NCBI GenBank assembly: GCA_965223845.1
Contig: CBDCXR010000004.1
Span: forward strand, 3,787,334 to 3,851,333
Reading direction: 5' to 3'
Source of the DNA: Planctomycetota bacterium
Lineage (GTDB): Bacteria; Planctomycetota; UBA8108; SXIK01
DNA: 64,000 nucleotides
Each line of letters opens with the position of its first letter. Positions within the stretch are counted from its first letter, which is position 1. Positions 3,416 to 64,000 of this stretch are shown in pieces. The translations under genes were made by a program, and so were the position numbers. Below the pieces are notes generated by a model. That model was not told the DNA's origin, ran no database searches, and saw only the letters and a list, made by a program, of their open reading frames with translations.

Positions 3416-3431
3416 GTTTTTGGGCGGACGG

Positions 3432-5275: not shown

Positions 5276-5391
5276 AGAGAAGACTCTAACCGAGACGCGA
5301 GCTCGAGAACATGCCGCGCCTTCGGCTCGACGTTAACGCAGCGCCCGATGGCCCCGAACCGAGAACGTGGTCCCAAACCTCTCGGCGATCC

Positions 5392-35606: not shown

Positions 35607-35826
35607 CGATGAACTCCCGCCTTCGGTCGAGCGCGACAAGTGACCGAGAGAGCCTACCGGAGGGGCGTTCGAGGATTCAAGCCCGGCGCACGAGTCAGGA
35701 CGAGCGGGGCCGGTTTGCGTTTCGATGCGATTCGCGATGCGCGGCGCGTTCGTTGGCGGCGGACGACGCATCCCGTATTCTGGTCGTTCCTCGTCAGACC
35801 CCATGCGATCCGAACTGGAGACCACG

Positions 35827-37062: not shown

Positions 37063-37114
37063 CGTCGAGCGAGCCATCGCATTCGAGTATCGGCAACCCA
37101 TCTGAGGAAATCCC

Positions 37115-46798: not shown

Positions 46799-46975
46799 TC
46801 GAGTTTCGTCTCTCGCTTCGCCGGCCGATGGCACCGGTGATCTAACCGCGCATCCTCCGTCTTTCTTGTACCCGAGAACGATCTCTCGTGCGCCTCCGAA
46901 CCGCGCGCGACCTTGGCTCGGGTCGGAACTCGTGAGACGATGGCGAGAACGAAACGGCTCCGAGTTCCATCGACA

Positions 46976-49317: not shown

Positions 49318-52300
49318 TCACGCCTTCGCGAGGTAGATCACAACTTCGGTTCCAGCGCCCGTGGCGGCCTTGAGGCGGAGGTCCCCTCCGTGTCCTCGCA
49401 CCGCGCCGTATGCGATCGAGAGCCCGATCCCTGAATTGCCGTCGGACAGCTTGGTCGTGAAGAACGGCTCGAGAGCGCGCTCGCGCTCGGGCTCGTTCAT
49501 CCCGGGGCCGCTGTCTCGGATGCGCACTTCAACGTACGCTCCGTCGAGAAGCCCCCCGGGATCGTCCACGAGACGAGTGTTCGACGTGCGAACGGTCAGC
49601 GTACCCGTCGTCGCCATCGCTTCTCGCGCGTTCCGAAGGATCGCCTCGAAGGCGGCGGACAGTCGATTCCGCTGCGCGCGAACCGGCCACAGTCCGACTT
49701 GCGCGCGAAAATCGACTCGCACGCCGCCCCGGCTCGCCGTCTCGGCATCGACGAGCGACTGGAGAAGAGCGTTGAGATCGATCTCCTCTTCCGGCTCCGA
49801 CGAATCGTTCGCGCTGCCGCAGAAGAGAGCCAGCCGATCGGTGAGCTCCTGGGCCTCGGTAAGACGTTCGAGCAGACGGTCGTCGACGCTGGGAGGATGT
49901 TCCTCGGAGCCGAGAAACGCGTCCAGGTGGTCGAGGATCCCGCGCAAGTCGCGAGAGAGTCGGCGCGAGAGTCCTTGGAGACTCTCGAGACGACGATCGC
50001 GCTCGCGAAGCGCCGCGACGCGCGCCTCCCGAGTCTCTTCGACGACGACGACGACACGGGTTCGTTGCCCACCCCCGATCGTGAATCCGCGCAAACGAAA
50101 GATCCGCTCGTCGGCGTCGTTCGGGCGGAACCCCTGAATCGAAAACGGTTCTCCCGCCGCGAGCATGCGAAGAGGAGCGTCGAGGTCGCGATGCGCGAAG
50201 AAGGGGAGGAGCGTGAGGGGCCGTCCGACGACATCGTCGAGTCGCGCCGGATCGATTCCGAGGCTCTCGGCGGCATTCCCGTTGAAGTCGATGACGCGGC
50301 CGCCGGCGTCGAGGACGAAAAGCGGATGGGGATAACTCGCGAACAGCGCGCGGTACCGCGTCTGTCGCCGGCGGTGCGCGAGCGACCACCGAAGCACGAT
50401 CGCCAGCGCAGCGAGCCCGACGATCGCCGCCACGGCGAGGAGCGCGCTCGTGACCCAGTCCCGCGACGGCGCGAAGCCTGCGACGGAAAACCGGTGCACG
50501 ATCGGCTCCCGGCAACTGTTGCCGTCGCGATCGCGCACCTCGACTTCGAGGACGTGATCCCCCGCGGCCAGCGGCCCCACACGAAGCGAGCTCTCGTGCG
50601 AGAACACGGACCACGGCTCGTTGTCGACGCGAGTGCGGTAGAGAAGCTCCCCGGGCGGCGTATCACCCCGGTGATCGTTCGCTCCCCACGAAAACGTGCC
50701 GACGCCGTCCTCATCGATCTCGTTCGGCAGGTCGCGGTGCGTGAAGCGAGGCGGGCGCCGCCCCTCGAGCGGTCGGTAGCGCCACACGCCTTGTCCATGA
50801 GTTCCGATGAGGAGAGTTCCCGGCTCCGAAACCGATGGAAAGACCGGCCAAACGCCGCTCCAACGATCGCCGGCCGAGCCGACGGGGACGTCGTAGAAAC
50901 ATTCGCCGTCGAAGCGGGTAAGCCCTCGATCCGTCCCGAACCAGAGATCGTCCCCGAGAGTCCTGATCGACCACACCGCGCTCGAAATCTCGCGAAAGCT
51001 CTCGACCTCGTCGCCACGGATGCGGCTCACCCCGGTGGCGGAGTCCGGGTAGCAGACCCAGATCGATCCGTCGGAACCTTCCGCGACCGACCACGTCGCG
51101 GACGAGAGCAGCCCGTCGTCGAGATCCCACTGCTGCTCCGGGACGAATCGCGGCTCGCCGACTTCCTCGCCGGAGAGAAACCGGCCACGAAAGACGCCGC
51201 GATCGGTAGCGAGCCAGAGCTCACCCGTCCGGAGGCGAAGGAGGTCGTTGACCGCGTACCGGCCGCCCTCGAGGCTCACCGTCTCGAATTGGGATCCGGT
51301 GAGCACCGAATGACGAAAGATCGCCGAGCTCGGGCCGTCGACGTCGCGGTGCGGGAGAAACCACAGCTCGCCGCGCCAATCCTTCACAATCCGGGCGATG
51401 CGGTGATCGCGAAGGCCCGGCGCGGTGACGCGGTGCCAATTGATCCCGTCGTAGACGTGCGCACCCAAGAACGCGTTCGAAGTGATCCAGACTCGTCCTT
51501 CGCCGTCTTCGGCGAGGCCGGTGACGCGCGGAAACGGAAACGACTGAATCCGTCCGCTGCGTTCGTGGAGCACGACGGCACTGTCCATGCCGGCGAAGAC
51601 GTCCCCGCCGCTGGTTTCGATGAGACTGAGAACACTCGGATGGACTCCCTCGTGCCCGGTCTCGACGTGCGACCAGCGACGCGACTCGGGATCGAAGACG
51701 GCGATTCCTCCCGGTCCCACGCGGAACCAGACGACGCCCGAGGTGTCGACGATCTCCGCCGCGAGCGCGACCGACCCGATGCCCAGCTCCGCCGCCGTCT
51801 CCCAATCGCGACCGTCCGGCGAGACGATGACTCGGCCGTCCTCGGTCGTCGCGACGTAGATGCCGTCGTGGAGGCGGAGGATCCTCGTCACGCTTCGATC
51901 CGGCGCACTCGCCGGACGCCAAACCTCGCCGTCGAGTCGAGCGAGAATGCCCGACGCCCCGGTCTCGGTGCTCGCATCGTCGCGCGGGACGAACCATCCC
52001 CACAGCTCGGCGCTCTCTTCCCCGCCGATCGGATCGCCCGCTGCTCGCCGCGGCGACGCTTCGTGCTCGACGCGGAAAAACCGCACGCAAACCTGGTCGC
52101 CGAGCCGCGGATCGACCTCCCGGCGTTCGACCCGTTTCCACCGCTTTCGACTGAGATCGCGCGTGAAGAGATCGAACGTCGTCGCGATCCAGTGGCGGCC
52201 GTCTCCGGCGACTGCGTACGCGCGGATCTCGCCGGTCACGTTGAGAAGAGGCTGATCCTCCGGGTCGAGAGGAGAGAGAGCCTCGCGGCGAATCTTGAAG

Positions 52301-52839
52301 TGACGGCGCTCCCCGCCGTCGAGAAGAAAGAGCTCGCCGAAACGTCCGCGCGCGAGAAAGAGACTCTGGCCTCGGTACACCGGTTCGAGGACGCCCTCGC
52401 CGAGGAGACGCCAGAGCACGCCCGCGCCGAGCGCGTAGATCTCCTTGAGCGACTCGGCGATCGTCGTGATGTCCGGCGCCGGATTCCCCGCCGGGAACGG
52501 AAACACGTCCCACTGCCACAGGTCGTAGCGGCACACACCGAGATTCGTCGCGGCGTAGACCTCGTTCGTGCTCGCTTGAAGGAGAGCCGTCACCGAGTTC
52601 GAGTTGAGTCCGTCCTCGCGCGAGTAGCTGTTCCAGCGCCACGCTTCGCCGAGCGCCGCTCGCAGCCGCAGAGCGCCGGCCGTCAACTCCGTCGCCGGGG
52701 CAGCTCTCGCCGGGATCGCCGGTTCGAACTGCCCCTGCGCCGGTACTACGGAGGCGCAGATGAGAGATGCACCCACACCAACCGCGGAGACCCTACGCCG
52801 AAGGCGAGCGGCAACGCAGACAGAGCGGCGTGCGTTCAA
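49318..52839 (-). CDS. sensor kinase-like protein: periplasmic two-component-regulator propeller repeats + Y_Y_Y domain, TM, PAS, dimerisation region, HATPase_c
   Basis: TTG at 52839 (TTGA overlap with the upstream small ORF) gives the signal peptide MNARRSVCVAARLRRRVSAVGVGASLICASVVPAQG. Long propeller-type repeats follow, then a Y_Y_Y-like segment (LLYRTRVDNEPWSVF...HVLEVEVRDRDGN) and TM LLAVAAIVGLAALAIVL. ATPase boxes present: ILRNAREAM, DSGPGM, FEPFFTTK, GIGLSI. Confidence 0.85.
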   Translation of the reverse strand: MNARRSVCVAARLRRRVSAVGVGASLICASVVPAQGQFEPAIPARAAPATELTAGALRLRAALGEAWRWNSYSREDGLNSNSVTALLQASTNEVYAATNLGVCRYDLWQWDVFPFPAGNPAPDITTIAESLKEIYALGAGVLWRLLGEGVLEPVYRGQSLFLARGRFGELFLLDGGERRHFKIRREALSPLDPEDQPLLNVTGEIRAYAVAGDGRHWIATTFDLFTRDLSRKRWKRVERREVDPRLGDQVCVRFFRVEHEASPRRAAGDPIGGEESAELWGWFVPRDDASTETGASGILARLDGEVWRPASAPDRSVTRILRLHDGIYVATTEDGRVIVSPDGRDWETAAELGIGSVALAAEIVDTSGVVWFRVGPGGIAVFDPESRRWSHVETGHEGVHPSVLSLIETSGGDVFAGMDSAVVLHERSGRIQSFPFPRVTGLAEDGEGRVWITSNAFLGAHVYDGINWHRVTAPGLRDHRIARIVKDWRGELWFLPHRDVDGPSSAIFRHSVLTGSQFETVSLEGGRYAVNDLLRLRTGELWLATDRGVFRGRFLSGEEVGEPRFVPEQQWDLDDGLLSSATWSVAEGSDGSIWVCYPDSATGVSRIRGDEVESFREISSAVWSIRTLGDDLWFGTDRGLTRFDGECFYDVPVGSAGDRWSGVWPVFPSVSEPGTLLIGTHGQGVWRYRPLEGRRPPRFTHRDLPNEIDEDGVGTFSWGANDHRGDTPPGELLYRTRVDNEPWSVFSHESSLRVGPLAAGDHVLEVEVRDRDGNSCREPIVHRFSVAGFAPSRDWVTSALLAVAAIVGLAALAIVLRWSLAHRRRQTRYRALFASYPHPLFVLDAGGRVIDFNGNAAESLGIDPARLDDVVGRPLTLLPFFAHRDLDAPLRMLAAGEPFSIQGFRPNDADERIFRLRGFTIGGGQRTRVVVVVEETREARVAALRERDRRLESLQGLSRRLSRDLRGILDHLDAFLGSEEHPPSVDDRLLERLTEAQELTDRLALFCGSANDSSEPEEEIDLNALLQSLVDAETASRGGVRVDFRAQVGLWPVRAQRNRLSAAFEAILRNAREAMATTGTLTVRTSNTRLVDDPGGLLDGAYVEVRIRDSGPGMNEPERERALEPFFTTKLSDGNSGIGLSIAYGAVRGHGGDLRLKAATGAGTEVVIYLAKA

Positions 52840-53150
52840 GGGCGGGCGGGCGGCGGATCTCCTGCAGCCGCGCTCCCCTGGGCGACCGCCGCGACTCCGG
52901 AGAGGCTCTCGGCGCGCGCGACGCGGGCGATGAATACCGCGAGCCCTGCGCCGATGCTGAGAACGACACCGAGCATAAAGAGGATGCTCCAGTAGAGGCC
53001 CGCCGCCAGACTCCCCTGCGAATCGCCGCCGTCCGATCGAGCGCTGTCCTCGACGGCCTCGCCGCACATCGCACACTGGGCGGTGAGCTCCGGTGCGAAC
53101 GCTGCAAAGGAGAGGGCGACGATGACGAACATGCGCGCGGGAGTGTTCAT
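52836..53150 (-). CDS. small membrane protein with signal peptide, CAMC motif and one TM helix
   Basis: 104 codons with strongly GC-rich third positions. MNTPARMFVIVALSFAAFAPELTAQ-CAMCGE...LYWSILFMLGVVLSIGAGLAVFIA. The stop overlaps the TTG of the sensor kinase. The competing frame here is only the Arg-rich extension of the kinase ORF. Confidence 0.6.
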   Translation of the reverse strand: MNTPARMFVIVALSFAAFAPELTAQCAMCGEAVEDSARSDGGDSQGSLAAGLYWSILFMLGVVLSIGAGLAVFIARVARAESLSGVAAVAQGSAAAGDPPPARP

Positions 53151-53400
53151 GCTCTAATTCTATCCCGGACCGCGCGGGAGTTTCTACTCCGCCGCACGTT
53201 TCTCGGCGGACGCGGGCTGGGCCGGCTCGGTTTCGCGCGCGCCCCGGGCAGCGCGCCGCGATACGATGCGCTCGCGGTCGATTTCCGACCGATCATAGGC
53301 CCCACCCACTCGAAATCGACGAGCTCCCACGATGCCGTTTCTCCCTCGACGTCGACCCGACGAACGTGTGCGCAGAGATCGAACGCCGCACGCATACACG

Positions 53401-56085
53401 ATGTCTCCCTCCTCGATCGCGTTTCCACTCGTCGCCGGCGTGCTGGTCGCGAAACTCGCGTTCGGAGACCCGACCGCCCTCCCTCTGGACCGCGGCGCCG
53501 CGGGACTCGAGCGCGCGCTGAAGCAGCTCTCGACGACGGCGAGCGTTCTCCACGTCGTCGCCCACCCCGACGACGAAGACGGCCCGCTCCTCACCTACCT
53601 CGCGCGCGGGCGCGGTGTGCGTACGATGGCCCTCTCGCTCACACGCGGTGAAGGCGGCGCAAATCTCATCGCACCGTATTTCTTCGATGAGCTCGGCGTC
53701 CTTCGCACGCTCGAATACCTCGAGGCGAATCGCTACTACGGCGTCGAACAGTTCTTCACCCGCGCCGCAGACTACGGGTACTCGAAACAGCTCTCCGAAG
53801 CCCAGCGCAAGTGGAAGGGATCCGAGATCCTGCTCGAGGACATGGTTCGCGTGATCCGCCGCGAGCGCCCGGACGTCGTGATCTCGCGCTTCTGGGGCGG
53901 GCGGAGAGACGGTCACGGTCACCACACCCTCGCGGGTGTCCTCACGCCGGAGGCCTGCGCCGCCGCCGCGGATCCGGAACGCTTCCCCGATCAACTGCGC
54001 GAAGGGCTCTTTCCCTGGCGAGTGAAGAAGCTCTACCGCGGGAACATCCGCCCCGAGCGCCGCGCGGAGGACGCGGAGGCGTGGACGGTGAAGGTCGATG
54101 CGGGCGAGTACGATCCCCTCCTCGGGGCGTCGTACTACCAGATCGCGCGCCGGGGCTACGGTTTCCATCGCTCCCAGGGGATCCTCCATCACGACGGTCG
54201 CGCCGGCAGCCGCGTCAGCCACTACCAGCTCATTCCGGCCGACTCGGACGAGCGCGTCGTAGAGGAAAGCCTGTTCGACGGCCTCGATACGACCCTTCGC
54301 GGTCTCACCGAATACTGGAGTGGCGAGACTCCGGCTTGGCTCGTCGACGGACTCGATCGGACTGCGGACTGGATCGCCTCCGCCCGTTCAGAATTCCGCG
54401 CGGACGATCCGCCGCGTATCGTTCCCCCGCTCGCGAACGCGCTGCGCTCGGTGCGCTCGCTCTCGAGTCAACTCTTCGACACGAGCTCCGGCACGCCCGA
54501 AAGCCATCGCGAGATCGCACGGCACCTCGCGCGGAAGGAACACGAACTCGAGCGCGCGCTCAGCCTCGCGCTCGGAATCGATCTCGAGGCGGCCGCGGGG
54601 AGAGACTCGCTCACCGGTTCGTCGCCCTTCTCACGCTCGAGCACGTTCGCCCACGCGACCCCGGGACAGATGTTCGACGTCGGTGTACGCCTCGTGCATC
54701 GCAGCCGCGTCCCGGTCGAGTTTCTGAAGGCGACGCTGAGCCTACCTCCGGGTTGGAGCTCGATGCTTCGAGACGCGACTCCGCCCGACTCGAATCTCGC
54801 TTACAACGGCGAAGCCCGGGCGAAGTTCAGCGTCGCGGTACCTTCCGCAGCATCGCCCACCCGACCGTACTGGCGACGCGCATCGATTTCCGACGCGTTT
54901 TACGACGTCGTCGATTCGCTCGCGACGCTGCCGTTCGCCCCGCCGCCGGCGTCCTGCCGCGCGACGATTCGCGTCGCCGGCGTCGAGGTCTCGGTCGACA
55001 CTCCGGTCCGCCTCGTCCTTCGCGATCCGGGGCTCGGGACTCGCTATCCGCCGCTCGCCGTCGCGCCACCGGTCAGCGTTCGATTCGCCGAGGGCGCGGG
55101 GATCCTGCCGCGCGGCAGGACGCGCTACGAGCTCACCGTGACCGTCCGCGGCGACGTCGCGGGCGGCGCATCGGGCGACGTGCGCCTCCAGGTCCCCGCC
55201 GGCTGGTCCGTCGAACCGGCGAGTGCGCCGTTTCGATTCGATCGCGAGGGCGCCGAGTCGACGCTCCGCTTCACGCTCTCGGCGCCGACGGAGCCCGCCG
55301 GCGAACGGTACGAAATCCGCGCGATCGCACGCCACGCGGACCGTGAGTACTCCGAAGGCTACCGGACGATCGAAGCACGCGACGTCGGCCGCTACGATTA
55401 CTATCTACCCGCGATTCACCGAGTGCGCGTCGTCGACGTCAACCTCGCGAACGACCTCGCCATCGCTTACGTGACGGGTTCCGGAGACGACATTCCGCAG
55501 AGCCTCCGTTTCCTCGGAATCGCGCCGACGCTTCTCGATTCCGAGACGCTCCAGAGCGGTGACCTCGATCGCTTCGACGCGATCGTCGTCGGCGTTCGGG
55601 CCTACGCGGTCCGAGAAGACGTCCGCCGCGTCAACTCGCGCCTCCTCGGCTACGTCGAACGCGGCGGCGTCCTCGTCGTTCAGTACCAGACGCCCGAGTT
55701 CGATCGAAACTTCGGCCCGTATCCGTATTCGATGGGACGCGCCGAAGAAGTGAGCGAGGAAGACGCCGCGGTCCGCATCCTCGCCCCGGAACATCCGCTT
55801 TTCACACAGCCGAATGCGATCGCCGCCGCCGACTTCGACGACTGGGTTGAGCAGCGCGGCTCGAAGTTCTGGGCGACCTGGGATGAGCGATACACACCGC
55901 TTCTCGAATGCCACGACGAAGACCAGGAACCACAACGCGGCGGGATGCTCTACGCACGCTCCGGAAAGGGCGCATACATCTACAGCGCGTACGCATGGTA
56001 CCGCCAGCTTCCCGCGGGAGTTCCCGGTGCGTTCAGGATCTACGCCAACCTGCTGTCCCACCGGAGAACTCTCGAGTCTCGCTAG
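53401..56085 (+). CDS. PIG-L (LmbE-like) family deacetylase fused to beta-sandwich repeats and a C-terminal ThuA/GATase1-like domain
   Basis: VLHVVAHPDDEDG and HGHHTLAG (PIG-L metal site). The central region is Ig-like. The C-terminal segment DRFDAIVVGVRAYAVRED...GGVLVVQYQT resembles class-I amidotransferase-like/ThuA-like folds. Confidence 0.82.
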   Translation: MSPSSIAFPLVAGVLVAKLAFGDPTALPLDRGAAGLERALKQLSTTASVLHVVAHPDDEDGPLLTYLARGRGVRTMALSLTRGEGGANLIAPYFFDELGVLRTLEYLEANRYYGVEQFFTRAADYGYSKQLSEAQRKWKGSEILLEDMVRVIRRERPDVVISRFWGGRRDGHGHHTLAGVLTPEACAAAADPERFPDQLREGLFPWRVKKLYRGNIRPERRAEDAEAWTVKVDAGEYDPLLGASYYQIARRGYGFHRSQGILHHDGRAGSRVSHYQLIPADSDERVVEESLFDGLDTTLRGLTEYWSGETPAWLVDGLDRTADWIASARSEFRADDPPRIVPPLANALRSVRSLSSQLFDTSSGTPESHREIARHLARKEHELERALSLALGIDLEAAAGRDSLTGSSPFSRSSTFAHATPGQMFDVGVRLVHRSRVPVEFLKATLSLPPGWSSMLRDATPPDSNLAYNGEARAKFSVAVPSAASPTRPYWRRASISDAFYDVVDSLATLPFAPPPASCRATIRVAGVEVSVDTPVRLVLRDPGLGTRYPPLAVAPPVSVRFAEGAGILPRGRTRYELTVTVRGDVAGGASGDVRLQVPAGWSVEPASAPFRFDREGAESTLRFTLSAPTEPAGERYEIRAIARHADREYSEGYRTIEARDVGRYDYYLPAIHRVRVVDVNLANDLAIAYVTGSGDDIPQSLRFLGIAPTLLDSETLQSGDLDRFDAIVVGVRAYAVREDVRRVNSRLLGYVERGGVLVVQYQTPEFDRNFGPYPYSMGRAEEVSEEDAAVRILAPEHPLFTQPNAIAAADFDDWVEQRGSKFWATWDERYTPLLECHDEDQEPQRGGMLYARSGKGAYIYSAYAWYRQLPAGVPGAFRIYANLLSHRRTLESR

Positions 56086-56261: not shown

Positions 56262-58388
56262 TCACTCGCCCGCTTTGTCTTCGCTTCCCTCTTCGGACGA
56301 CTCGGAGTCCTCGTCCTTCTCCTTCTCCGGAGCGTACTCGAGCTCCGGAGCCGGCGGTTCACCGCCGTCGCCTTTCAAGTAGTGCTCGAACCACCGCAGC
56401 ATCCGCAGGTGGTAATCGAAGCGCGCCGCCGACTTCCGGTTGCCGTGGCCTTCTCCCGGATAGAGGACGAGGCGCACGGGTGTCTTCCCGAGATGGCGAA
56501 GGTGACGGTAGAGCTCCATCGACTGGCTCGGATGGACGCGGGTGTCCTCTTTACCGTGGAGAATGAGGAGTGGCGTGCGCGACTTCTCGACGTGGTAGAT
56601 GGGACTTCGTTCGAGGAACCATTCCCAATTGCCGTAGAGTTTCTTTCGCGCGTGGACGAGGAACATCTCGTTCGGGATGTCCGTCGTACCGAACTTCGAG
56701 ATTTGATCGCTGATACCGACGAACATCACGCCAGCCGCGAAGCGCTCGGAGTGATAGGTCGAGCACCACGCCGTCGCGAAGCCGCCGTAGGACCCGCCCG
56801 TGACACCGACTTTATCCTTGTCGACGAGTCCGATCGAAACGAGGTGATCGACGGTGTCGACGAGGTCGTCGAACTCCTTCCCCGCGTAGTCACTCTGGCC
56901 GAGCTTCGAGAACGCGACTCCGCGTCCCGTACTGCCGCGGTAGTTGGGGTGGAACACCGCAAAGCCGCGTGCCGAGGCGACCTGACCCGGTCCCGAGTAG
57001 AACGATGTCCACCCGTTTCGATCGTGAGCCTCGGGTCCACCGTGAACGCGAAGGATCAGCGGGTACCGTTCGCCCTCTTTCTCGTCGAGCGGTCGAATCA
57101 GGATCCCCTCGAGCTCGAGACCGTCGCGCGCTTTGTAGCGGACGATCTCCTGCTTCGCAAAGCGCATCGCGTCGAGCCAGTCGTTGCTCGTCGTCAAACG
57201 ACGCGGCGATTCTTCCGATGTCCGGAGCGCAAAGACCTCATTCGGGTACTCGGGATGACTCGAGAGGAACGCGATGCGCGAGCCGTCGCGCGAGATCGAG
57301 AGATCGGACGCGACGAGCGATCCCTTCTCGACGAGCACACGCGGCTTCTCGGCGTCGATGTGATACTCGCCGATCGAGCACGTCGCCCCGACCGAGGCGA
57401 TGTAGCTCACGGTGAAGTCGTCCTTCCAAACGATCGCGTCAAAGTCGCCCTCTCCCGGAAACGGAAGCTGCTTCGGCGCGCCGCCGACGGCGGGTACGAC
57501 CATGAGTCGCCCGGCGTTCGGATCGTGGATGTCCTCGGCCGAGAGAAACGCGAGCTTCGTTCCGCTCGGATTCCAGGCGAGGGGCCCGAGCTTCCCCGGC
57601 GTGTCGAAGACGGCGAAGACTTGCGCCGACTCGACGTCGACCACGTGGATCTTTCGCTTCATGAACCAGTCGTCGATGAGCGGGGTCGGCGCGATCGTGA
57701 GCGCGAGGCGGTCGCCGCGCGGCGACCAGTGAAGATCGGACGGGAATCCCTCGATCTCGAGCGCTCGCGGCTCATCGTCGCTGTTGATCGAGCCGACGAG
57801 GACGCGCGTCGGGCGAAACTCTTCTTCGTAGATCTGCTGATTGAAACCCTTCTCGACGAGAGACTTTCGATCGTCGGCGACCGGGTCGGTCGCGATGAAC
57901 GCGACGCGCTTCCCGTCCGGACTCCACGAGTAGGACGCTATGTCACTCTTATGAGAGAGAACCTTGCTCGCCTCACCACCGTCGATCGGGATGACGTAAA
58001 GACTTCGGTGAGCGTCTTTCCCGCGTTTCGCGAGAAACGAAATTCCGGTTCCGTCGGGCGTCCACTCGACTTGACCGACGCTCACTTCACCGCTCACGTA
58101 CGGTCGCGAAGTGCCGTCCGCGCCGATCACGTGAAGCTCGGCCCACGACGAGCCGGACGGCTCGGCGACCGGCGTTCTCGGGACGCGGAGAACGTACGCG
58201 ATGCGCTGCCCGTCCGGCGCGATCCGCGCGGACGAGACCATGCGGAGCTTCGCCACGTGCTCGGGAGTGAACACCTCGCCGGCGGAGTCGTTCGCGACCG
58301 GAGTGTCCGAGTCGTCCGCGGCGACGGCGAGAGTGGCGATGCTGGCGAAGAGCGCGGCGGACGCAACAAGCACAGTACGTTCGTTCAT
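56262..58388 (-). CDS. S9 family serine peptidase (prolyl oligopeptidase / acylaminoacyl-peptidase type) with N-terminal beta-propeller
   Basis: Signal peptide MNERTVLVASAALFASIATLAVA. TolB/WD40-like repeats (SPDG.R.AF). Nucleophile elbow GGSYGGFATAW; PLLILHGKEDTRV; PGEGHG. Acidic C-terminal tail. Confidence 0.9.
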   Translation of the reverse strand: MNERTVLVASAALFASIATLAVAADDSDTPVANDSAGEVFTPEHVAKLRMVSSARIAPDGQRIAYVLRVPRTPVAEPSGSSWAELHVIGADGTSRPYVSGEVSVGQVEWTPDGTGISFLAKRGKDAHRSLYVIPIDGGEASKVLSHKSDIASYSWSPDGKRVAFIATDPVADDRKSLVEKGFNQQIYEEEFRPTRVLVGSINSDDEPRALEIEGFPSDLHWSPRGDRLALTIAPTPLIDDWFMKRKIHVVDVESAQVFAVFDTPGKLGPLAWNPSGTKLAFLSAEDIHDPNAGRLMVVPAVGGAPKQLPFPGEGDFDAIVWKDDFTVSYIASVGATCSIGEYHIDAEKPRVLVEKGSLVASDLSISRDGSRIAFLSSHPEYPNEVFALRTSEESPRRLTTSNDWLDAMRFAKQEIVRYKARDGLELEGILIRPLDEKEGERYPLILRVHGGPEAHDRNGWTSFYSGPGQVASARGFAVFHPNYRGSTGRGVAFSKLGQSDYAGKEFDDLVDTVDHLVSIGLVDKDKVGVTGGSYGGFATAWCSTYHSERFAAGVMFVGISDQISKFGTTDIPNEMFLVHARKKLYGNWEWFLERSPIYHVEKSRTPLLILHGKEDTRVHPSQSMELYRHLRHLGKTPVRLVLYPGEGHGNRKSAARFDYHLRMLRWFEHYLKGDGGEPPAPELEYAPEKEKDEDSESSEEGSEDKAGE

Positions 58389-58734
58389 GACGATTCGTTT
58401 CCGTCGAAAGACAAGCACACCCGCAGAGCGGCGGACAAAACTCCCGCTCTGGTTGCTGGTGCGCGCAAGATCGGAGGCGCCGCCCGCATCGGAGGTCGGG
58501 TTCCGGCGCACGAAGACCATCGGATTTCGAGACCCACGGTCACGATGACCGCGCGCTTCTTCCGGGTCAACCGATTCCTAGCGTCGGCATCAGCGGGCGC
58601 GATCTTCGGCGCGGGAACGTCCAAAGCGCCGGGACGGGGTTTTCGGAACGAGCTCCACTCGTCCGGCCGCCCGCGCTTCAGCCGGACGGGGGCGCGGCGG
58701 AGAAACTGTCCGAAATCCCGACGAACGGGCCCTC

Positions 58735-59991
58735 TCAGTCCTTGGGGCGGAGCAGCGCCAGCGCACGCGCGGCCGCGGCGGCTCGAGCTCCGCCTCGCGC
58801 CGACTCCGCACGAAAGAGCGCGACGACGTCCGCTCGGTCGACGCCCTTCGTCCTCGGCTCGATACCGCCGAGGAGACGGACGACGTACGCGACTTCGTCG
58901 TCCGATTCACTCGCGCCGGCCAGCTCGAGGAGCCGAGCGATCGCGGGATCGTCGCCGCGCCGAGCGAGGACCCAGAGGATCCGCCGGCGCTCGTCCGCAT
59001 CCTTCGCCTCGCGAGAGCGCGCGACGAGCGCCGCGGTCATTCGCGGTCCGGGGAGCAGCACCGCCGCCTCGAGCGCGGCGCCGCGGATCTGGCGATTCGC
59101 ATCGCCCGTCGCCGCCGCGATGCGCGCGATCTCACTCTGGAGACCCGCGCGCGCGAACCCGATGAGCGCCGCGCAGTGCTCGGCGATCCCGAGGCTCGTC
59201 GCTCGATCGTAGATGCGACGCGCCGTCCCGCGCTCGGAGTTCGCCACGAGACTGTCGGCGAGCCGAAGATACGCCCGGCGAACGCGCAGGTGATCGATCC
59301 CCTCGGTCGTGCGGAGCGCCTCCTCGAGGACGCTAACGGACGAAATCTCACCGATGAGTGCGAGCGATTCGATCGCGACGAGGCGAACTTCCCGATCCTC
59401 GTCGCGCGCAGCTTCGAGCAGGTGCTGAACGGCCAGCGCGTCCTTGCGCAGTCCCATCGCTCGGAGGACGCCGAGTCGCAGATTCCCCGTCGCGCCCGAG
59501 AGCGCATCGCGGAGCGCCTTCTTCACGGTGACGACAGGGATCCGTTCGAGCGCACGCCGCGCGGCTTCGCGGACGGCCGCCTCGCCGTGCCCGCCGAGGA
59601 TCGACGCGAGCGGCCGCACGGATTCGTACTTTCCCAGTCGTCCGATCTCCTCGATGAGCGCGACGCGAGCCCGGAGCGGAAGCTCCGCCTCGAGGGCGGC
59701 GAGGGCGGACTTGACGAACTCACGCCTCGCGCCATCCGCACCGGGGCGTCCGCTCTCCGCACTCGCACGTTCCAGCCGGTCCGCACCGCGCGCAAACTCG
59801 CTCGGCTCTTCGCTCGCAAGCTGCGAGACGATCGCAGCGAACGGCGGCGGATCCTGGGCGCGAGCTCCGTCGGCGAGGAATGCAAGCGCGAACGGGATGA
59901 TCGACAAGAAGATCGGCAGCGCACGCGACGGCGCGAACGGTCTCGACCGGCGCGCCAGCGCGACGACAAGGAAACAGGCGTTCGAATTCAT
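58735..59991 (-). CDS. exported HEAT-repeat protein (partner of Gfo/Idh/MocA gene, module 1)
   Basis: N-terminal hydrophobic signal/anchor. Repeats of the type D..VR..A...L (AVREAARRALERIP, DREVRLVAIESLALIG, NRQIRGAALEAAVLL). Colinear with the partial protein at 63157-64000. Confidence 0.7.
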   Translation of the reverse strand: MNSNACFLVVALARRSRPFAPSRALPIFLSIIPFALAFLADGARAQDPPPFAAIVSQLASEEPSEFARGADRLERASAESGRPGADGARREFVKSALAALEAELPLRARVALIEEIGRLGKYESVRPLASILGGHGEAAVREAARRALERIPVVTVKKALRDALSGATGNLRLGVLRAMGLRKDALAVQHLLEAARDEDREVRLVAIESLALIGEISSVSVLEEALRTTEGIDHLRVRRAYLRLADSLVANSERGTARRIYDRATSLGIAEHCAALIGFARAGLQSEIARIAAATGDANRQIRGAALEAAVLLPGPRMTAALVARSREAKDADERRRILWVLARRGDDPAIARLLELAGASESDDEVAYVVRLLGGIEPRTKGVDRADVVALFRAESARGGARAAAAARALALLRPKD

Positions 59992-60026
59992 GGTGACGAG
60001 CTTCTAGTGGCGAGAGCGATCGACGA

Positions 60027-61253
60027 CTATATCTGGTACGGAGCCCGCATCGGACGGTCGAGCCAACGCGAGGCCGCTTCGTCGTCGACGATTTCTTCCT
60101 TGGCCGGATCCCAGCGGATCGTGCGACCGAGCCAGATCGCGATGTTCGAGAGATGACACACCGTGACCGAGCGCGCGCCGATTTCGACGTCGGCGACCGG
60201 CTCGTCGCGCGTGGTCATGCAGTTCCACCAATCGCGATGGTGTCCGGGGCTCCGGTAGAGTTTCACCGCCGGACTCGCGAGCTCGGCTCCGAGCTCCGCG
60301 GGATCCGCCGCGAATTTGCCGCGGTTCACGGTGATCGAGCCGGCCGACCCGACGAACTTGACCCCGTCGGCCGCTACCTTGCCGCAGCGCACCGTGACAC
60401 CGTTCTCGTAAACGATCGTCACGTACTCTTTTCCAGATTCGGGCGGGCGAACCTCTACCGGTCCGCTGCGCTCGTACCCGAGACCCCATTGCGCGATGTC
60501 GAGATGGTGAGCTCCCCAATCGGTCATCGTGCCGCCGGAAAACTCGCGGTACGCCCGCCAGCTCCCGGGGTGGAGCTTCCGATTGTAGTCACGCCACGGC
60601 GCGGGTCCGATCCAGCGGTCCCAATCGAGTCCCGATGGTACCGGCTCGGCGGGGAGGCGACAGGGTCGCGACGATCCCCATACGCTCACGAGGACTTCCT
60701 TGACCGCTCCAATTCGACCATTTCGAACGAGCTCGCAGGCGCGATGGAACTCCGCGCCCGAGCGCTGCTGACTCCCGACTTGAACGACGCGAGCGTAGCG
60801 ACGCGCGGCGTCGACCATCTTTCGTGCCTCGACGACGGTGAGGCTGAGCGGCTTTTCGCAGTAGACGTCCTTCCCCGCTTCACACGAGTGGATCGCCGGA
60901 AGCGCGTGCCAGTGATCGGGCGTCGCGATGACGACCGCGTCGACGTCCTCCCGGTCGAGGAGCGCGCGATAGTCGTTCGTCTTGAAACACGCCGAGCCAA
61001 CGCGGGCGGCGGCGGCGTCACGCTTCGACGCGTCGACGTCGCAGACCGCGACCGACGGGTGGGACTTGCTCGTCGCATATCGGCCGAGGTGTCCGTTTCC
61101 CATGCCGCCGACACCGATGTGTCCGATTCCGACGCGCTCGTTCGCATCGGGACGAAACGCCGTCCCGATGGCCCCTGGACGAGCGATCGCCGGAGCGACG
61201 AGTCCGGCTCCGAGCGCGCCTAGGAACGAGCGACGACTGACGCGCCGAGACAT
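60027..61253 (-). CDS. TAT-exported Gfo/Idh/MocA family oxidoreductase (module 1)
   Basis: Twin-arginine signal MSRRVSRRSFLGALGAG. Rossmann VGIGHIGVGGMG. DAVVIATPDHWHA and VYCEKPLS. C-terminal RSPGHHRDWWNCM. Confidence 0.9.
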   Translation of the reverse strand: MSRRVSRRSFLGALGAGLVAPAIARPGAIGTAFRPDANERVGIGHIGVGGMGNGHLGRYATSKSHPSVAVCDVDASKRDAAAARVGSACFKTNDYRALLDREDVDAVVIATPDHWHALPAIHSCEAGKDVYCEKPLSLTVVEARKMVDAARRYARVVQVGSQQRSGAEFHRACELVRNGRIGAVKEVLVSVWGSSRPCRLPAEPVPSGLDWDRWIGPAPWRDYNRKLHPGSWRAYREFSGGTMTDWGAHHLDIAQWGLGYERSGPVEVRPPESGKEYVTIVYENGVTVRCGKVAADGVKFVGSAGSITVNRGKFAADPAELGAELASPAVKLYRSPGHHRDWWNCMTTRDEPVADVEIGARSVTVCHLSNIAIWLGRTIRWDPAKEEIVDDEAASRWLDRPMRAPYQI

Positions 61254-61868
61254 CGCGATCCTCCGAGCTGGTTTCGGTCGAGATGAGCCGCGCCCGCGTC
61301 GCGTCACATCGCCATCGAGCTGAAGCGAGCCCCGCGCGCGGAGGAACCGAACGACCGCGAAGGCAGCAACAGCGGTAAATCGAGAACGTAATCCCAGGAA
61401 AGGATAGTCCACCGTGCGCGCGATGACAGCTCTCTCGTCCGTTCGATTTGTCGATTCCGGCGTGCTGAGACGGGCGCTGCGCTTGTGTTCGACGAGACTC
61501 GGCACGGGGCGATTCGATTTAGCCGGGAACTAGCGCGTTCGCTCTCCTCCGACAAACAACGGACGAATCCTCCCCGGCTCGAGACGCGAGGCGCGAACGG
61601 GACGACTCCCGATCGGGCGAGCCGTGAGACGGGATCGATACCGCTTTCGCCCACGGATGCTCTGTCGTGAATCCGCGACGATCGTCTGGAAACACGTGCC
61701 GTTCGGTTCGCGATGCCGACCGATGTCCCTCGTTTTCTGACGGCGAACCGATTCGCGCGCGGACCCCCAGCTCACGACTCGTGTTCAGGCGACCGAACTC
61801 TTAGCTCGATCGCGCTCCGAGGCCGGTAGAATGACGCGCAACGAGAATCCACTGAGCGAGGTATCAAG

Positions 61869-63143
61869 ATGGCAGAACGCTCGACCCGACGGCGGTTTCT
61901 AAAGCGCGCGGCGCAGATCGGAGCGGCCGCGAGCGCACCGGCGATTTTTCCGCACGGAATGCTCGGTGCGGCATCGCCGAACGAGCGCATCGTCACCGGT
62001 CATATCGGCGTCGGCGGCATGGGCACGGGACAGCTCCGCGGCTCGTTTCTTCAGAACGCGGGGGCGATTTGCGATGTCGACGAAAACCACCTCCGCCGCG
62101 CCGCTCGTCTCGTCGGTCGGTACGTCCCGCTCTACCGCGACTTTCGCGAGCTCCTCGACCAGCGTGACATCGACGGCGTCGTCGTCGCGACGCCCGATCA
62201 CTGGCACGCAGTGCAGACTGTCTACGCGTGCGAAGCGGGAAAGGACGTCTACTGTCAGAAGCCCCTCAGCCTCACCGTCGAAGAAGGGCTCAAGATGAAA
62301 GCCGCCGCGGATCGCTGCGGGCGCATCATCCAAGTCGGCTCGCAGGGACGCTCGACGCGCGCCGCGTACAAGGCCTGCGGTTACGTTCGGAACGGACAGA
62401 TCGGCCGCGTGAAGGAAGTGCGCTGCTGGCACTACGCCAATCCCGTCGGGGGCTTCAAACCCGACGAGCCGCCGCCTCCGCACCTCGACTGGGATCTCTG
62501 GCTCGGTCCGGTTCGCTACGTGCCCTACAACGTCGACCGCTGTCACTTCAATTTTCGTTGGTTCCTCGAGTTCGGTGGCGGACAGATCCGCGACCGCGGC
62601 GCGCACGTCATGTCCGTTGCGCTGTGGCTGCTCGGCGCCGACACGCAGCCGCTTCACTCGGTCGAAGCAACGGGAACGGCTCCCAAGGAGGGCATCTGGG
62701 ATTGTCCCGTCGACATGGAGGTGAAGTACGAGTTCAAGGACCCGGACTGGACGATGTACTGGCTCCAGCCCGGCGAGCCGCAGCGCGGTGCGGGCTACGG
62801 CGCGACGTACCTCGGGGAGAAGGGAAACCTCATCGTCACCGGAGGAGACGGCGGCTGCGGCACCGAGGAAAAAGCGATGCAGTACACTCCGCCCTCCGAT
62901 GGAGTTCAGCCGTACAAGAGTCCTGGTCACGAACGCGATTGGCTGAATTGCATGAAGACGCGGGAGAAGCCGATCATGCACATCGACGCGGGTCTCGCGG
63001 TCGCCAATCTGTGCATTCTGGGGAACATTTCGTACATCCTCGGACGCGAGCTCCGGTGGGATGCCGAGACGAATCGTGTGATCGGTGACGCGGAGGCGAA
63101 CCGGATGCTCGCTCGGCCAAATCGCACGCCGTGGCGGATTTGA
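61869..63143 (+). CDS. TAT-exported Gfo/Idh/MocA family oxidoreductase (module 2, paralogue of 60027-61253)
   Basis: MAERSTRRRFLKRAAQIGAA, VTGHIGVGGMG, DGVVVATPDHWHA, VYCQKPLS and KSPGHERDWLNCM are colinear with module 1. Confidence 0.9.
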   Translation: MAERSTRRRFLKRAAQIGAAASAPAIFPHGMLGAASPNERIVTGHIGVGGMGTGQLRGSFLQNAGAICDVDENHLRRAARLVGRYVPLYRDFRELLDQRDIDGVVVATPDHWHAVQTVYACEAGKDVYCQKPLSLTVEEGLKMKAAADRCGRIIQVGSQGRSTRAAYKACGYVRNGQIGRVKEVRCWHYANPVGGFKPDEPPPPHLDWDLWLGPVRYVPYNVDRCHFNFRWFLEFGGGQIRDRGAHVMSVALWLLGADTQPLHSVEATGTAPKEGIWDCPVDMEVKYEFKDPDWTMYWLQPGEPQRGAGYGATYLGEKGNLIVTGGDGGCGTEEKAMQYTPPSDGVQPYKSPGHERDWLNCMKTREKPIMHIDAGLAVANLCILGNISYILGRELRWDAETNRVIGDAEANRMLARPNRTPWRI

Positions 63144-63156
63144 GGAGGGACGGACC

Positions 63157-64000
63157 ATGAGATACCACGCACTCGCGATCGCGATCGCCACCTCGCTGCT
63201 CCTCGCCGCTGCCTCCCCGATCCGCGCGGAGACTCCCGCCACCGAAACCGTCCCCGATCCGGCGGCCGACCGCGCCGTCGCGAAGCTCGTCGAACAGGTC
63301 ACATCGGACGACAAGGACGTCCGCTACGCCGCTCGATCGGCGGCGCGTACGCTCGGGGCGCGGGCGATCAACCCGCTCGGCCGGCTGCTCGAGCACGAGA
63401 GCCGCGAAGTTCGGATCACGGCGCTCCGAGCGCTCGAGCAGATCGTGCATCACGCCGGTCGACCTGGTGCGGCTCGAGAGGCGCTCGCGGCGAGCCGGTC
63501 GTTGGCTCGGGTCGTCCGCTCGGACTCCCCGCAGTGGGTGAAGCTCGAGCTTCTCAGTCTCGTCGCGCACATTGGCGGGGACGCGATCGTTCCCCGCGTG
63601 AGCGGCTTCCTCCACGACCCCGATCCGCACGTCCGCGAGACGGCGCGCCTCGCCCTCGAGCGCATCCCAACGCGCGCGGCGAGCGGAGCTCTCATTCGCG
63701 CGGTGCGCGAATCGACCGGCGCAGATCGCGTCGCGTTTCTGTTCTCGCTCGGGAAGAAGCGTGACCCCGCGCTGACATCGTTTCTCCTCAGTCAGGCGTA
63801 CGACAGAGACGAAGAGGTCCGCCTCGCCGCACTCCGCGCGCTCGCGCACGCCGGTGCGCCGGAGGCTCAGCCGGCGTTTCGAGACGAGATCCAGCGCTCG
63901 GAGTCTCACGAGCGCGCTCAGCTGTTCGGAGAACTGCTCCGTCTCGCCGACGAGCTCGCAGACGCGGGTCGCTCGGGCGTCGCACGCCACCTGTTCGGCG
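63157..64000 (+). CDS. exported HEAT-repeat protein, 3' end outside window (module 2)
   Basis: Not in the ORF track because it has no stop inside the window. GAGGAGG lies 8 nt upstream of ATG 63157. My own translation gives the signal peptide MRYHALAIAIATSLLLAAASPIRA followed by DKDVRYAARSAARTLG, SREVRITALRALEQI, DPHVRETARLALERIP and DEEVRLAALRALAHAG. Confidence 0.7.
   Translation, partial: MRYHALAIAIATSLLLAAASPIRAETPATETVPDPAADRAVAKLVEQVTSDDKDVRYAARSAARTLGARAINPLGRLLEHESREVRITALRALEQIVHHAGRPGAAREALAASRSLARVVRSDSPQWVKLELLSLVAHIGGDAIVPRVSGFLHDPDPHVRETARLALERIPTRAASGALIRAVRESTGADRVAFLFSLGKKRDPALTSFLLSQAYDRDEEVRLAALRALAHAGAPEAQPAFRDEIQRSESHERAQLFGELLRLADELADAGRSGVARHLFG

Follow-up and report, generated by a model that had tools for sequence, protein, structure and literature searches.

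In the last part of the window, the 64,000-nt stretch of Planctomycetota DNA that was analysed, a gene for a Gfo/Idh/MocA oxidoreductase (Gfo) is twice followed by a gene for a HEAT-repeat protein (HEAT). Gene adjacency, phylogenetic breadth and co-inheritance of the partners show that each module is an operon-like Gfo-HEAT unit. We judge it somewhat probable that HEAT, itself non-catalytic, serves in the periplasm as the scaffold or adaptor subunit for a glycoside 3-dehydrogenase of the BT2158/ThuB kind. From comparisons of sequences and models we infer that the two proteins bind each other, that the chemistry is a 3-oxidation, which substrates are used, and that HEAT is a scaffold and not another kind of accessory protein. 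The features are as follows.

58735..59991, minus strand: HEAT1, 418-aa predicted exported HEAT-solenoid protein, short form (ORF, PF13646, AF2 model)
60027..61253, minus strand: Gfo1, 408-aa Tat-motif Gfo/Idh/MocA oxidoreductase, PF01408 + PF19051 (ORF, Pfam)
61254..61868, no strand: divergent intergenic region, 615 nt between the modules (sequence read)
61869..63143, plus strand: Gfo2, 424-aa Tat-motif Gfo/Idh/MocA oxidoreductase, PF01408 + PF19051 (ORF, Pfam)
63157..64000, plus strand: HEAT2, N-terminal 281 aa of a long-form predicted exported HEAT-solenoid protein, cut by the window end (translation, PF13646)

The four ORFs lie where the original prediction had put them, and all the motifs that it quoted were found. 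In each module the two genes share a strand, with Gfo1 ending 35 nt before HEAT1 and Gfo2 13 nt before HEAT2. The exact 408-aa product of Gfo1 was found in a public collection. Pairwise identities, proposed earlier as a check, were computed and favoured the prediction. Gfo1 and Gfo2 are paralogous along their full length as claimed (40% identity, 435 columns, E 6e-93), and HEAT1 is colinear with the 281-aa fragment of HEAT2 (30% identity over 189 aa, E 2e-12). The latter similarity exceeds repeat-versus-repeat noise, because the alignment is colinear over many homologues and contains the motifs HHAGRPGA, VRExARxALERIP and YLRLAD, which are specific to the HEAT family. The contigs L002 and L087 are the nearest relatives of the window and have wider synteny in common with it. 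The intergenic region presumably harbours the promoters of both modules. Comparison with the equivalent L002 region gave no conserved blocks, and a search of 61254..61868 against Rfam gave no match. The equivalent place in L087 is taken by a gene for a CHASE sensor kinase.

A survey of Gfo neighbourhoods covered 80 loci, 73 of them informative, with ~1.2 Mb of flanks. The gene directly downstream of Gfo belonged to the HEAT family at 16 of these 73 loci, and at L072 in addition. HEAT was the commonest downstream partner, followed by a xylose-isomerase-like TIM barrel (5 loci). About 57 of the 73 loci had no HEAT neighbour, indicating that the enzyme fold does not require a HEAT partner. HEAT-family matches that were not directly downstream of Gfo numbered about 4 in the surveyed flanks. 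When HEAT-family genes were looked up instead, a Tat-motif PF01408+PF19051 Gfo gene adjoined on the same strand in 9/9 informative cases, with a spacing of 11-67 nt or a 4-nt overlap. The adjacency occurs in Planctomycetota, Verrucomicrobiota, Phycisphaerae/Tepidisphaerales, Omnitrophota and others, and is thereby kept far outside the source genome, as the survey suggested in the original prediction was meant to establish. Distance matrices of Gfo and HEAT were correlated over 24 pairs (Mantel r=0.586, reached by 0 of 5000 permutations), nearest neighbours agreed in 10 of these pairs, and partner matching was paralogue-specific in three genomes. The correlation and the paralogue-specific matching show that the partners are co-inherited. 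Together with the tight spacing (11-35 nt) and the 4-nt overlaps, paralogue-specific co-inheritance suggests that the two proteins are stoichiometric partners.

The arrangement had been read as a mirror-image duplication. The mirrored two-gene layout is real, and both modules are arranged in the same way in L002 and L087, but the duplication is ancient and not a recent local event. At the DNA level the mirror similarity has faded except where coding sequence is conserved (217 nt at 76%), which indicates that the duplication is old. Gfo1 and Gfo2 fall into different clades of a tree of 104 Gfo sequences, and the Gfo1 clade holds L045, L068 and L053, all three HEAT-linked. Orthologues are closer than the window paralogues, both for Gfo1/HEAT1 (L087 66%/47%, L002 71%/56%) and for Gfo2/HEAT2 (L002 85%/47%, L087 76%/45%, L007 63%/38%). 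The two window modules are lineages that diverged anciently.

Both oxidoreductases belong to the Gfo/Idh/MocA family. PF01408 and PF19051 (cutoffs 24 and 23.3) matched Gfo1 with 82 and 97 bits and Gfo2 with 59 and 81 bits, and both proteins contain the GVGGMG motif. The Tat-export motif (S/T-R-R-x-F-L-K followed by a hydrophobic region) was found in both, as SRRSFLG in Gfo1 (SRRSFLGALGAGLVAPAIA) and TRRRFLK in Gfo2 (TRRRFLKRAAQIGAAASAPAI), and on the basis of this twin-arginine motif both are predicted to be exported by Tat. All 22 HEAT-linked Gfo proteins that were inspected carry the motif, as do essentially all of the 104 sampled Gfo.

The 3-keto-glycoside pathway of Bacteroidota (BT2156-BT2159/AL1-AL4) includes the Tat-exported Gfo-type enzyme BT2158/AL3, in which NAD is bound tightly and does not exchange, the DUF1080 hydrolase BT2157 and a xylose-isomerase-like enzyme (PMC8121099; bioRxiv 10.1101/2024.03.25.586180). 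BT2158/AL3 resembles the window enzymes in the Gfo/Idh/MocA fold and the twin-arginine signal, and gives their best NCBIfam and PDB matches. The top NCBIfam match of both was BT_2158_fam glycoside 3-dehydrogenase, and the best PDB matches of Gfo2 were 8tdf_A/8tdh_A (E 3e-36), the 8tdf similarity spanning chiefly the N-terminal ~220 residues. Gfo1 and Gfo2 were rejected as BT_2158_fam equivalogs (NF058561), since they scored 170.3 and 176.3 bits against a curated cutoff of 750. The AL3 active site consists of Gln161 (NAD contact), Asp248, His252 (contacts O3) and the sugar contacts Arg192/Trp195 (bioRxiv 10.1101/2024.03.25.586180). With an inferred 8tdf-AL3 numbering offset of 29, Gln159, Asp242 and His246 of Gfo2 align with the NAD-contact/catalytic Gln/Asp/His of 8tdf, so that the triad is apparently conserved, whereas equivalents of Arg192/Trp195 seem to be absent from the window enzymes, a gap and non-equivalent residues taking their place in the HMMER alignment to 8tdf_A. 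Given the low scores and the apparent lack of Arg/Trp, the window enzymes could act on another substrate or even at another position of the sugar.

HEAT1 and HEAT2 are both HEAT-repeat alpha-solenoid proteins by PF13646 (HEAT_2; cutoff 27.7), with 56 bits (4.3e-15) and 79 bits (2.6e-22), respectively. In the AF2 model of HEAT1 (pLDDT 91.7, pTM 0.83) residues 50-413 form an alpha-solenoid of about 11 hairpins, and a long-form orthologue, P0041, was also modelled as a solenoid (pLDDT 92.2). Foldseek matched HEAT1 to protein-binding solenoids only, such as alphaRep, importin-alpha and PP2A-A, and the other fold matches on the HEAT side were likewise to protein-binding scaffolds. The conserved positions of the family are A/L/G/V and a few Arg/Asp; a conserved His or Cys was sought in the family alignment and none was found, and the CxxCH motif was absent too. 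The N-terminus of HEAT1 is long, includes a hydrophobic segment that ends in ARA/QD, and is the part of the model with low confidence, and HEAT2 has a plain Sec-type signal (MRYHALAIAIATSLLLAAASPIRA/ET). The N-terminus was signal-peptide-like in 136 of the 147 best HEAT-family representatives.

The two HEAT proteins are not equivalent. HEAT1 is a C-terminally truncated short form of a ~850-aa protein and is without the terminal jelly-roll domain; its orthologues have 332 aa in L002 (56% identity) and 849 aa in L087 (47%). HEAT2 is a long form whose orthologues have 671-709 aa and a C-terminal beta-sandwich domain, so about 60% of it lies past the window end. Its nearest relatives are the Gfo2-clade partners (L002 47%, L087 45%, L007 38%) and Verrucomicrobial mini forms. 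Mini forms (~180-200 aa) retain the solenoid core alone. We defined the Gfo-linked HEAT family by a colinear profile match and a place directly downstream of a Tat-motif PF19051 Gfo (alignments A2/A5/A7), and both were found for HEAT1 and HEAT2. An HMM built from A2 gave 424 bits for HEAT1 and 319 bits for the HEAT2 fragment, both being training members, and 96-454 bits for independent members at 17 surveyed loci. The family has 14,165 representatives at E<=1e-30 and is named no further than "HEAT repeat protein".

Domain fusions and neighbouring genes bear on the pathway. ThuA-HEAT fusions were found in L040, P0052, P0146, P0203 and P0207, HEAT-DUF1080 (3-keto-disaccharide hydrolase) fusions in P0037, P0059, P0261 and others, and a triple ThuA-HEAT-DUF1080 fusion in P0177. 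Other fused or terminal domains are F5/8C, FG-GAP, LamG_3 and a GH2_N-like sugar-binding jelly roll, the last being the commonest accessory domain and present in most long forms. Glycoside hydrolase and sulfatase genes often lie near Gfo-HEAT pairs in other genomes, and at L088 the vicinity also encodes AP_endonuc_2, another Gfo, a sulfatase and GH95. Loci related to the window modules thus have HEAT fused to or beside DUF1080, AP_endonuc_2 and a second Gfo, as is comparable with BT2156-BT2159/AL1-AL4. However, the described Bacteroides/Alistipes clusters include no HEAT protein (PMC8121099; bioRxiv 10.1101/2024.03.25.586180), and no DUF1080 or TIM-barrel gene adjoins the window modules. The predicted role in periplasmic glycoside or sugar oxidation gains support from the BT_2158_fam best match, from 8tdf/8tdh and from the ThuA/DUF1080 fusions. 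The ThuA/DUF1080 context that had been cited for this role is indeed present in the window as one gene (6875-8458, the sole ThuA domain there), but at 50 kb it is weak context taken alone. At the level of sequence, the comparative evidence ties the Gfo-HEAT pair to a putative periplasmic 3-keto-sugar breakdown of glycosides.

ThuAB, the disaccharide 3-dehydrogenase of Agrobacterium/Sinorhizobium, consists of the Gfo-family ThuB and an accessory ThuA, which is needed for 3-keto-disaccharides, as summarised in PMC8121099. By that summary it resembles the window modules in joining a Gfo-family dehydrogenase to a non-dehydrogenase partner, and ThuA domains are repeatedly fused to the HEAT family in other genomes, but the partner in the window is a HEAT solenoid and not ThuA. 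The modules were rejected as a ThuAB system because no ThuA (PF06283) was found within or beside either of them.

In the proposed mechanism, Gfo would fold and take up NAD(P) while still in the cytoplasm, leave by Tat, and oxidise a sugar hydroxyl in the periplasm, most likely at C3 of a glycoside as BT2158/AL3 and ThuB do. The exported HEAT solenoid, without a catalytic or cofactor site of its own, would be the subunit that serves Gfo as a scaffold or adaptor. The conserved ~190-330 residues at its N-terminus would hold the dehydrogenase, and the variable remainder would recruit either the glycan to be oxidised or the activities that follow in the pathway. In most long forms this remainder is a GH2_N-like jelly roll, and in other genomes ThuA, 3-keto-disaccharide hydrolase, F5/8C or FG-GAP. 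The two anciently diverged versions in the window probably differ in sugar specificity, and HEAT1 would be the version that lost the C-terminal half. Glycan recruitment cannot be the universal function, since the mini forms consist of the core alone and HEAT1, too, is without the domain presumed to bind sugar. Several mini forms have no signal peptide, which disagrees with a simple scheme of separate export for both proteins.

A stronger form of this reading, which we put forward tentatively and with some doubt, is that the HEAT solenoid is an obligate structural subunit of a periplasmic multi-enzyme machine for non-hydrolytic, oxidation-elimination cleavage of glycosides in PVC bacteria. On HEAT, the Tat-exported 3-dehydrogenase would be assembled with ThuA, the 3-keto-glycoside hydrolase and the sugar-binding module; reactive 3-keto intermediates might be channelled and bound NAD recycled inside one complex. 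Where mini forms are signal-less, the folded enzyme might carry its HEAT partner through the membrane by Tat hitchhiking.

The carbohydrate-binding-like C-terminal domains (GH2_N-like fold, F5/8 type C, LamG_3) and the glycoside hydrolases and sulfatases encoded nearby would also fit independent glycan capture, in which HEAT binds or presents polysaccharide via its jelly-roll or F5/8C domain and is co-regulated with Gfo while forming no complex. We regard this as unlikely. HEAT1 and the mini forms keep the tight adjacency with the solenoid core alone, conservation within the family lies in the solenoid and not in the sugar-binding-like domain, and the spacing and co-inheritance described above point to stoichiometric partners.

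HEAT might instead dock the Tat-exported Gfo to a periplasmic acceptor, a cytochrome c or a ThuA partner, as an electron outlet through which tightly bound NAD(P)H is re-oxidised without a sugar co-substrate. The in vivo re-oxidation of AL3/BT3-type enzymes is an open question, for which 'specialized proteins, such as cytochromes' have been considered (bioRxiv 10.1101/2024.03.25.586180), and ThuAB is called cytochrome-c dependent in the summary given by PMC8121099. The repeated ThuA fusions would agree, as would P0136, a weak profile match with a HEAT_2 domain that is annotated as 'putative heme-binding domain-containing protein'. But no cytochrome gene adjoined the modules in the window or at any examined locus, the family has no conserved Cys/His and no CxxCH, and its commonest accessory domain is sugar-binding-like and not a redox domain, which makes an electron outlet rather improbable.

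Tat systems use dedicated binding partners and co-export signal-less subunits, as in the hydrogenase and DMSO reductase systems. With this precedent, and with a twin-arginine motif on every partner Gfo, the HEAT core might bind Gfo or its Tat signal and govern how the enzyme is loaded with cofactor, exported or kept stable. The mini forms without a signal would then either act in the cytoplasm or be carried out with Gfo by Tat hitchhiking. P0026-29, P0031 and the mini forms of L009, L011 and L017 have neither a signal peptide nor an in-frame upstream start. However, the great majority of HEAT proteins, both window proteins included, have their own signal peptides and would therefore meet Gfo only after export; members bear extracytoplasmic-type domains (DUF1080, jelly roll), and such a partner is missing beside most Tat-exported Gfo relatives. 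A maturation factor is thus quite improbable.

Planctomycetota have very many genes of both the HEAT-repeat and the Gfo type, and the window shares wider synteny with L002 and L087, but inherited synteny or chance clustering of gene types abundant in PVC genomes is hardly credible given the adjacency across several phyla at 23-40% partner identity, the fixed position and strand, the very short spacing, the congruent trees, the fusions to pathway enzymes and the scarcity of HEAT-family matches elsewhere in the surveyed flanks.

Periplasmic Gfo-type glycoside 3-dehydrogenases initiate a recently recognised, broad-specificity, non-Koshland glycan breakdown, in which recycling of the non-exchangeable NAD and handling of labile 3-keto intermediates were left open (PMC8121099; bioRxiv 10.1101/2024.03.25.586180). 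A dedicated co-inherited HEAT partner accompanies a large share of such Gfo in Planctomycetota, Verrucomicrobiota and neighbouring phyla. The pair is widespread, has no name and is apparently unstudied, and our literature search found no paper linking the HEAT family to the 3-keto-glycoside pathway. If HEAT is a scaffold, a missing organising component of this pathway has been identified, and Gfo-HEAT co-expression would be a simple handle for poorly behaved PVC Gfo enzymes. If the multi-enzyme machine exists, HEAT would represent a new class of accessory subunit in a pathway so far described as separate soluble enzymes only. A scaffold role would also help to annotate a very large number of 'HEAT repeat domain-containing proteins'.

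Zymomonas GFOR is a periplasmic, Tat-exported Gfo-family enzyme with tightly bound NADP (cited in PMC8121099). It is like the proposed Gfo in family, Tat export and tight binding of the cofactor. GFOR functions by itself, with free glucose and fructose as its substrates and C1/C2 as the positions attacked, and we know of no HEAT partner or PF19051-type C-terminal domain association for it. A phycobilin lyase/NblB-type identity of HEAT1 and HEAT2 (NF058502, NF045915) was rejected at 17-30 bits against cutoffs of 300-330. The window proteins score far under the cutoffs of the PBS-lyase-type HEAT families (CpcE/CpcF, NblB, YibA), and differ from these and from eukaryotic scaffolds (PP2A-A, importins) in being predicted as exported and in being paired with a dehydrogenase. 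Unlike PBS-lyase-type proteins, the HEAT family has no bilin-lyase context and carries sugar-related accessory domains.

The Gfo-HEAT pair is real, general and apparently unstudied. In the window it occurs as two divergent modules at the right end, each with a Gfo gene followed by a gene for a HEAT-repeat protein. The coordinates of the four ORFs in the original prediction were right, and every motif quoted from them was found in the translations. Identical copies of the window's proteins are present in the public protein collection. The genes are as follows.

60027-61253, minus strand: Gfo1, 408 aa, PF01408 and PF19051 (GFO_IDH_MocA_C2), twin-arginine motif SRRSFLG
58735-59991, minus strand: HEAT1, 418 aa, PF13646
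61869-63143, plus strand: Gfo2, 424 aa, PF01408 and PF19051 (GFO_IDH_MocA_C2), twin-arginine motif TRRRFLK
63157 to window end, plus strand: HEAT2, 281-aa fragment, PF13646

As had been proposed, the Gfo proteins are paralogous along their full length (40% identity end to end, E 6e-93) and the HEAT proteins are colinear (30% identity over 189 residues between HEAT1 and the HEAT2 fragment, E 2e-12). The genes are separated by 35 nt in module 1 and by 13 nt in module 2. Both modules originate from a 615-nt intergenic region, which showed no conservation with its equivalent in L002 (a contig of another genome) and no Rfam match. HEAT2 begins with a plain Sec-type signal peptide, and the N-terminus of HEAT1 is longer, with a hydrophobic helix ending ARA/QD. 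HEAT1 is a shortened form, its orthologue on contig L087 being 849 aa and its relatives at 42-48% identity 846-916 aa. HEAT2 orthologues are 671-709 aa and therefore the greater part of HEAT2 lies past the window end. HEAT1 and HEAT2 are not equivalent partners. Downstream of HEAT1, on its strand and 215 nt away, is a gene for a 752-aa PD40 beta-propeller and S9 prolyl-oligopeptidase protein (56262-58520, minus strand); it is also next after the HEAT1 orthologue in L002 and is absent there in L087. It may be co-transcribed with HEAT1 in the lineage of the window.

The mirror arrangement had been taken for a duplication of the module. The modules are indeed paralogous in a deep sense, but a recent inverted duplication was ruled out by DNA similarity and the Gfo tree. 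Mirror similarity at the DNA level was confined to conserved coding blocks, the longest of 217 nt at 76%, and Gfo1 and Gfo2 fell in different clades when 104 Gfo sequences were placed in a neighbour-joining tree. The closest pairs to Gfo1/HEAT1 were in L002 (71%/56% identity) and L087 (66%/47%), and those to Gfo2/HEAT2 in L002 (85%/47%), L087 (76%/45%) and L007 (63%/38%). Contigs L002 and L087 contain both modules in the same divergent arrangement. The much closer relatives elsewhere and the arrangement shared with L002 and L087 indicate two old module lineages kept side by side. In L087 the place exactly between the divergent modules is occupied by a CHASE-domain hybrid sensor kinase gene (2969-5656), and an Hpt gene comes after the HEAT gene. 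At 49318-53292 (minus strand), 5 kb from the modules, the window encodes a sensor histidine kinase of 1324 aa that combines Reg_prop propeller repeats with PAS domains. The neighbouring kinases and the Hpt gene are hints of two-component control.

Domain fusions are the most telling evidence on the role of the HEAT family. ThuA is fused at either end of HEAT in locus L040 and in the HEAT-family proteins P0052, P0146, P0203 and P0207, a C-terminal 3-keto-disaccharide hydrolase domain (DUF1080) is carried by P0037, P0059, P0261 and others, and P0177 is a ThuA-HEAT-DUF1080 triple fusion. In locus L088 a TIM-barrel gene (AP_endonuc_2) and a second Gfo come after a Gfo/HEAT-DUF1080 pair. They are the remaining enzyme types of the 3-keto-glycoside pathway as described, whose DUF1080 part the fusion provides; also nearby are a sulfatase and a GH95. 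We propose that a Tat-exported, cofactor-loaded dehydrogenase would oxidise a glycoside, probably at C3, and that the exported solenoid would hold the dehydrogenase via its conserved N-terminal repeats and act as an adaptor recruiting the glycan or the next activities. The analysis shows the adjacency and how widespread it is, the joint inheritance, the fusions and the predicted folds; from these comparisons we infer the Gfo-HEAT binding, the 3-oxidation chemistry and the substrates. Further HEAT-family members have F5/8 type C, LamG or FG-GAP domains, and the HEAT protein might instead capture glycan independently of the enzyme, which is possible but unlikely.

In the window, the 527-aa product of 6875-8458 (plus strand), 50 kb from the modules, has ThuA (PF06283, 7e-16) and 3-keto-disaccharide hydrolase (PF06439, 1e-32) domains, the same two that HEAT-family proteins of other genomes carry as fusions. 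At 35644-37945 (plus strand) a UPF0261 gene is followed by a 279-aa ORF, and in locus L090 a ThuA-HEAT fusion and its Gfo are immediately preceded by a PEP_hydrolase and UPF0261 pair (4941-7001). The two occurrences of UPF0261 may reflect either a recurring association or chance.

Among NCBIfam families, both Gfo proteins matched the BT_2158_fam glycoside 3-dehydrogenase best, scoring 170-176 bits where the equivalog cutoff is 750. Among solved structures, 8tdf_A and 8tdh_A were closest (E 3e-36) and the C-glycoside 3-oxidase DgpA came next. Aligned to 8tdf, Gfo2 keeps a Gln, an Asp and a His that would match Gln161 (NAD-contacting) and Asp248/His252 of AL3; counterparts of the AL3 sugar-contact residues Arg192/Trp195 appear to be missing (a gap and non-equivalent residues). 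A twin-arginine motif was present in 22 of 22 HEAT-linked Gfo proteins and in essentially all 104 sampled relatives. The family match, the residues shared with 8tdf and the Tat motifs suggest that Gfo1 and Gfo2 would work like the BT2158 class without being equivalogs of it. BT2158 and AL3 are described as Tat-exported with tightly bound, non-exchanging NAD, and how they are re-oxidised in vivo is acknowledged to be an open question (PMC8121099; bioRxiv 10.1101/2024.03.25.586180). The HEAT protein could thus be imagined as an adaptor to an electron acceptor, which we regard as improbable. The BT2156-2159/AL pathway and ThuAB are among the closest known systems, but no HEAT component has been described in either, and literature searches for HEAT repeats linked to Gfo, ThuA or glycoside 3-dehydrogenase found nothing. 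The modules would join a known periplasmic chemistry of sugar oxidation to a widespread, so far unrecognised family of accessory subunits, whose function is predicted by comparison.

In AF2 models, HEAT1 (pLDDT 91.7) and its long orthologue P0041 (pLDDT 92.2) each form an uninterrupted alpha-solenoid, and the only structural neighbours are protein-binding scaffolds (alphaRep, PP2A-A, importins, CAND1, SF3B1 and CpcE/F). Across 159 members, the positions that are conserved hold structural Ala/Leu/Gly/Val and a few Arg/Asp. Neither a conserved cofactor or metal site nor any conserved His or Cys was found among these members, which makes a catalytic or redox role of the HEAT protein unlikely. Searching 1.84 billion representatives with the family profile yielded 14,165 matches at E<=1e-30, the best 150 of which all span the full 847-position profile. 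A signal-peptide-like N-terminus is present in 136 of the 147 best sequences examined, and the jelly-roll motif in 118. The C-terminal domain had no PDB match by sequence search and only weak Pfam matches (GH2_N, E 0.012; PA14, E 0.09). No source names these proteins beyond 'HEAT repeat protein'. P0163 (6021 aa), P0167 (4325 aa) and P0175 (4673 aa) are giant HEAT proteins with 24 separate profile-matching stretches each.

Mini forms, about 180-200 aa long in general and 175-250 aa in the cases listed here, consist of the N-terminal core only and are encoded directly after Tat-motif Gfo genes (L009:2789-3328, L011:10402-10977, L017:11372-12121; P0026-P0029 and P0031). Neither a signal peptide nor an in-frame upstream start codon was found for these mini forms. 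Since they keep the core only, they argue for enzyme binding as its putative function. The signal-less forms either act in the cytoplasm or leave bound to the enzyme, which raises the possibility of Tat hitchhiking. A HEAT protein serving as a maturation or export factor, in place of the adaptor proposed here, seems quite doubtful.

The pair had been predicted to be conserved, and all nine informative HEAT-family look-ups in public assemblies had a same-strand PF01408+PF19051 Gfo gene adjacent, upstream in 8/9 and downstream in one (L090), with gaps of 11-67 nt or a 4-nt overlap. L001 was counted as uninformative and left out of the nine, as the contig end removes its true upstream gene; its apparent HEAT-then-Gfo order was rejected, because its downstream Gfo is of another subfamily (28% identity). 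For the survey from the Gfo side, the Gfo alignment was the seed of a genome scan with one genome per species. The scan gave the best 80 of at least 600 relatives, which do not include the genome of the window, and a HEAT-family HMM was run over all ORFs of these loci, 73 of which had enough downstream sequence. A HEAT-family gene was directly downstream of Gfo in 16 of the 73, and in one more positive locus (L072) it lies within an array of tandem Gfo genes; about four matches occurred elsewhere in ∼1.2 Mb of surveyed loci. HEAT-negative loci with a same-strand downstream gene (n=44) had a xylose-isomerase-like TIM barrel in five and another Gfo in three, so the HEAT family is the single commonest downstream neighbour. 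Chance synteny is scarcely credible.

Positive loci were found in Planctomycetota, Verrucomicrobiota, Tepidisphaeraceae, Phycisphaerales, Omnitrophota and unclassified bacteria, and none in the large Acidobacteriota/Bacteroidota section of the 104-sequence Gfo tree. The Gfo and HEAT distance matrices were correlated over 24 pairs (r=0.586; 0/5000 permutations as high), nearest neighbours were concordant in 10/24 pairs, and the proteins most closely related to HEAT2 are precisely those partnered with Gfo2-clade enzymes. Gfo and HEAT partners are inherited together. At L036:7011-14392, L072:9259-19126, L080:2-4682 and L040:5645-11302, four to six Tat-motif PF19051 Gfo paralogues are arranged in tandem on one strand.

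The window also encodes, at 53332-56085 (plus strand), a protein of 917 aa in which a PIG-L/LmbE-type deacetylase domain at the N-terminus is combined with NPCBM-associated and GLMA-like domains, apparently an unusual, large exported architecture of carbohydrate de-N-acetylase type. A DUF1501/DUF1800 pair typical of Planctomycetota is located at 42933-47002 (minus strand), and its 877-aa DUF1800 protein has several EF-hand motifs.
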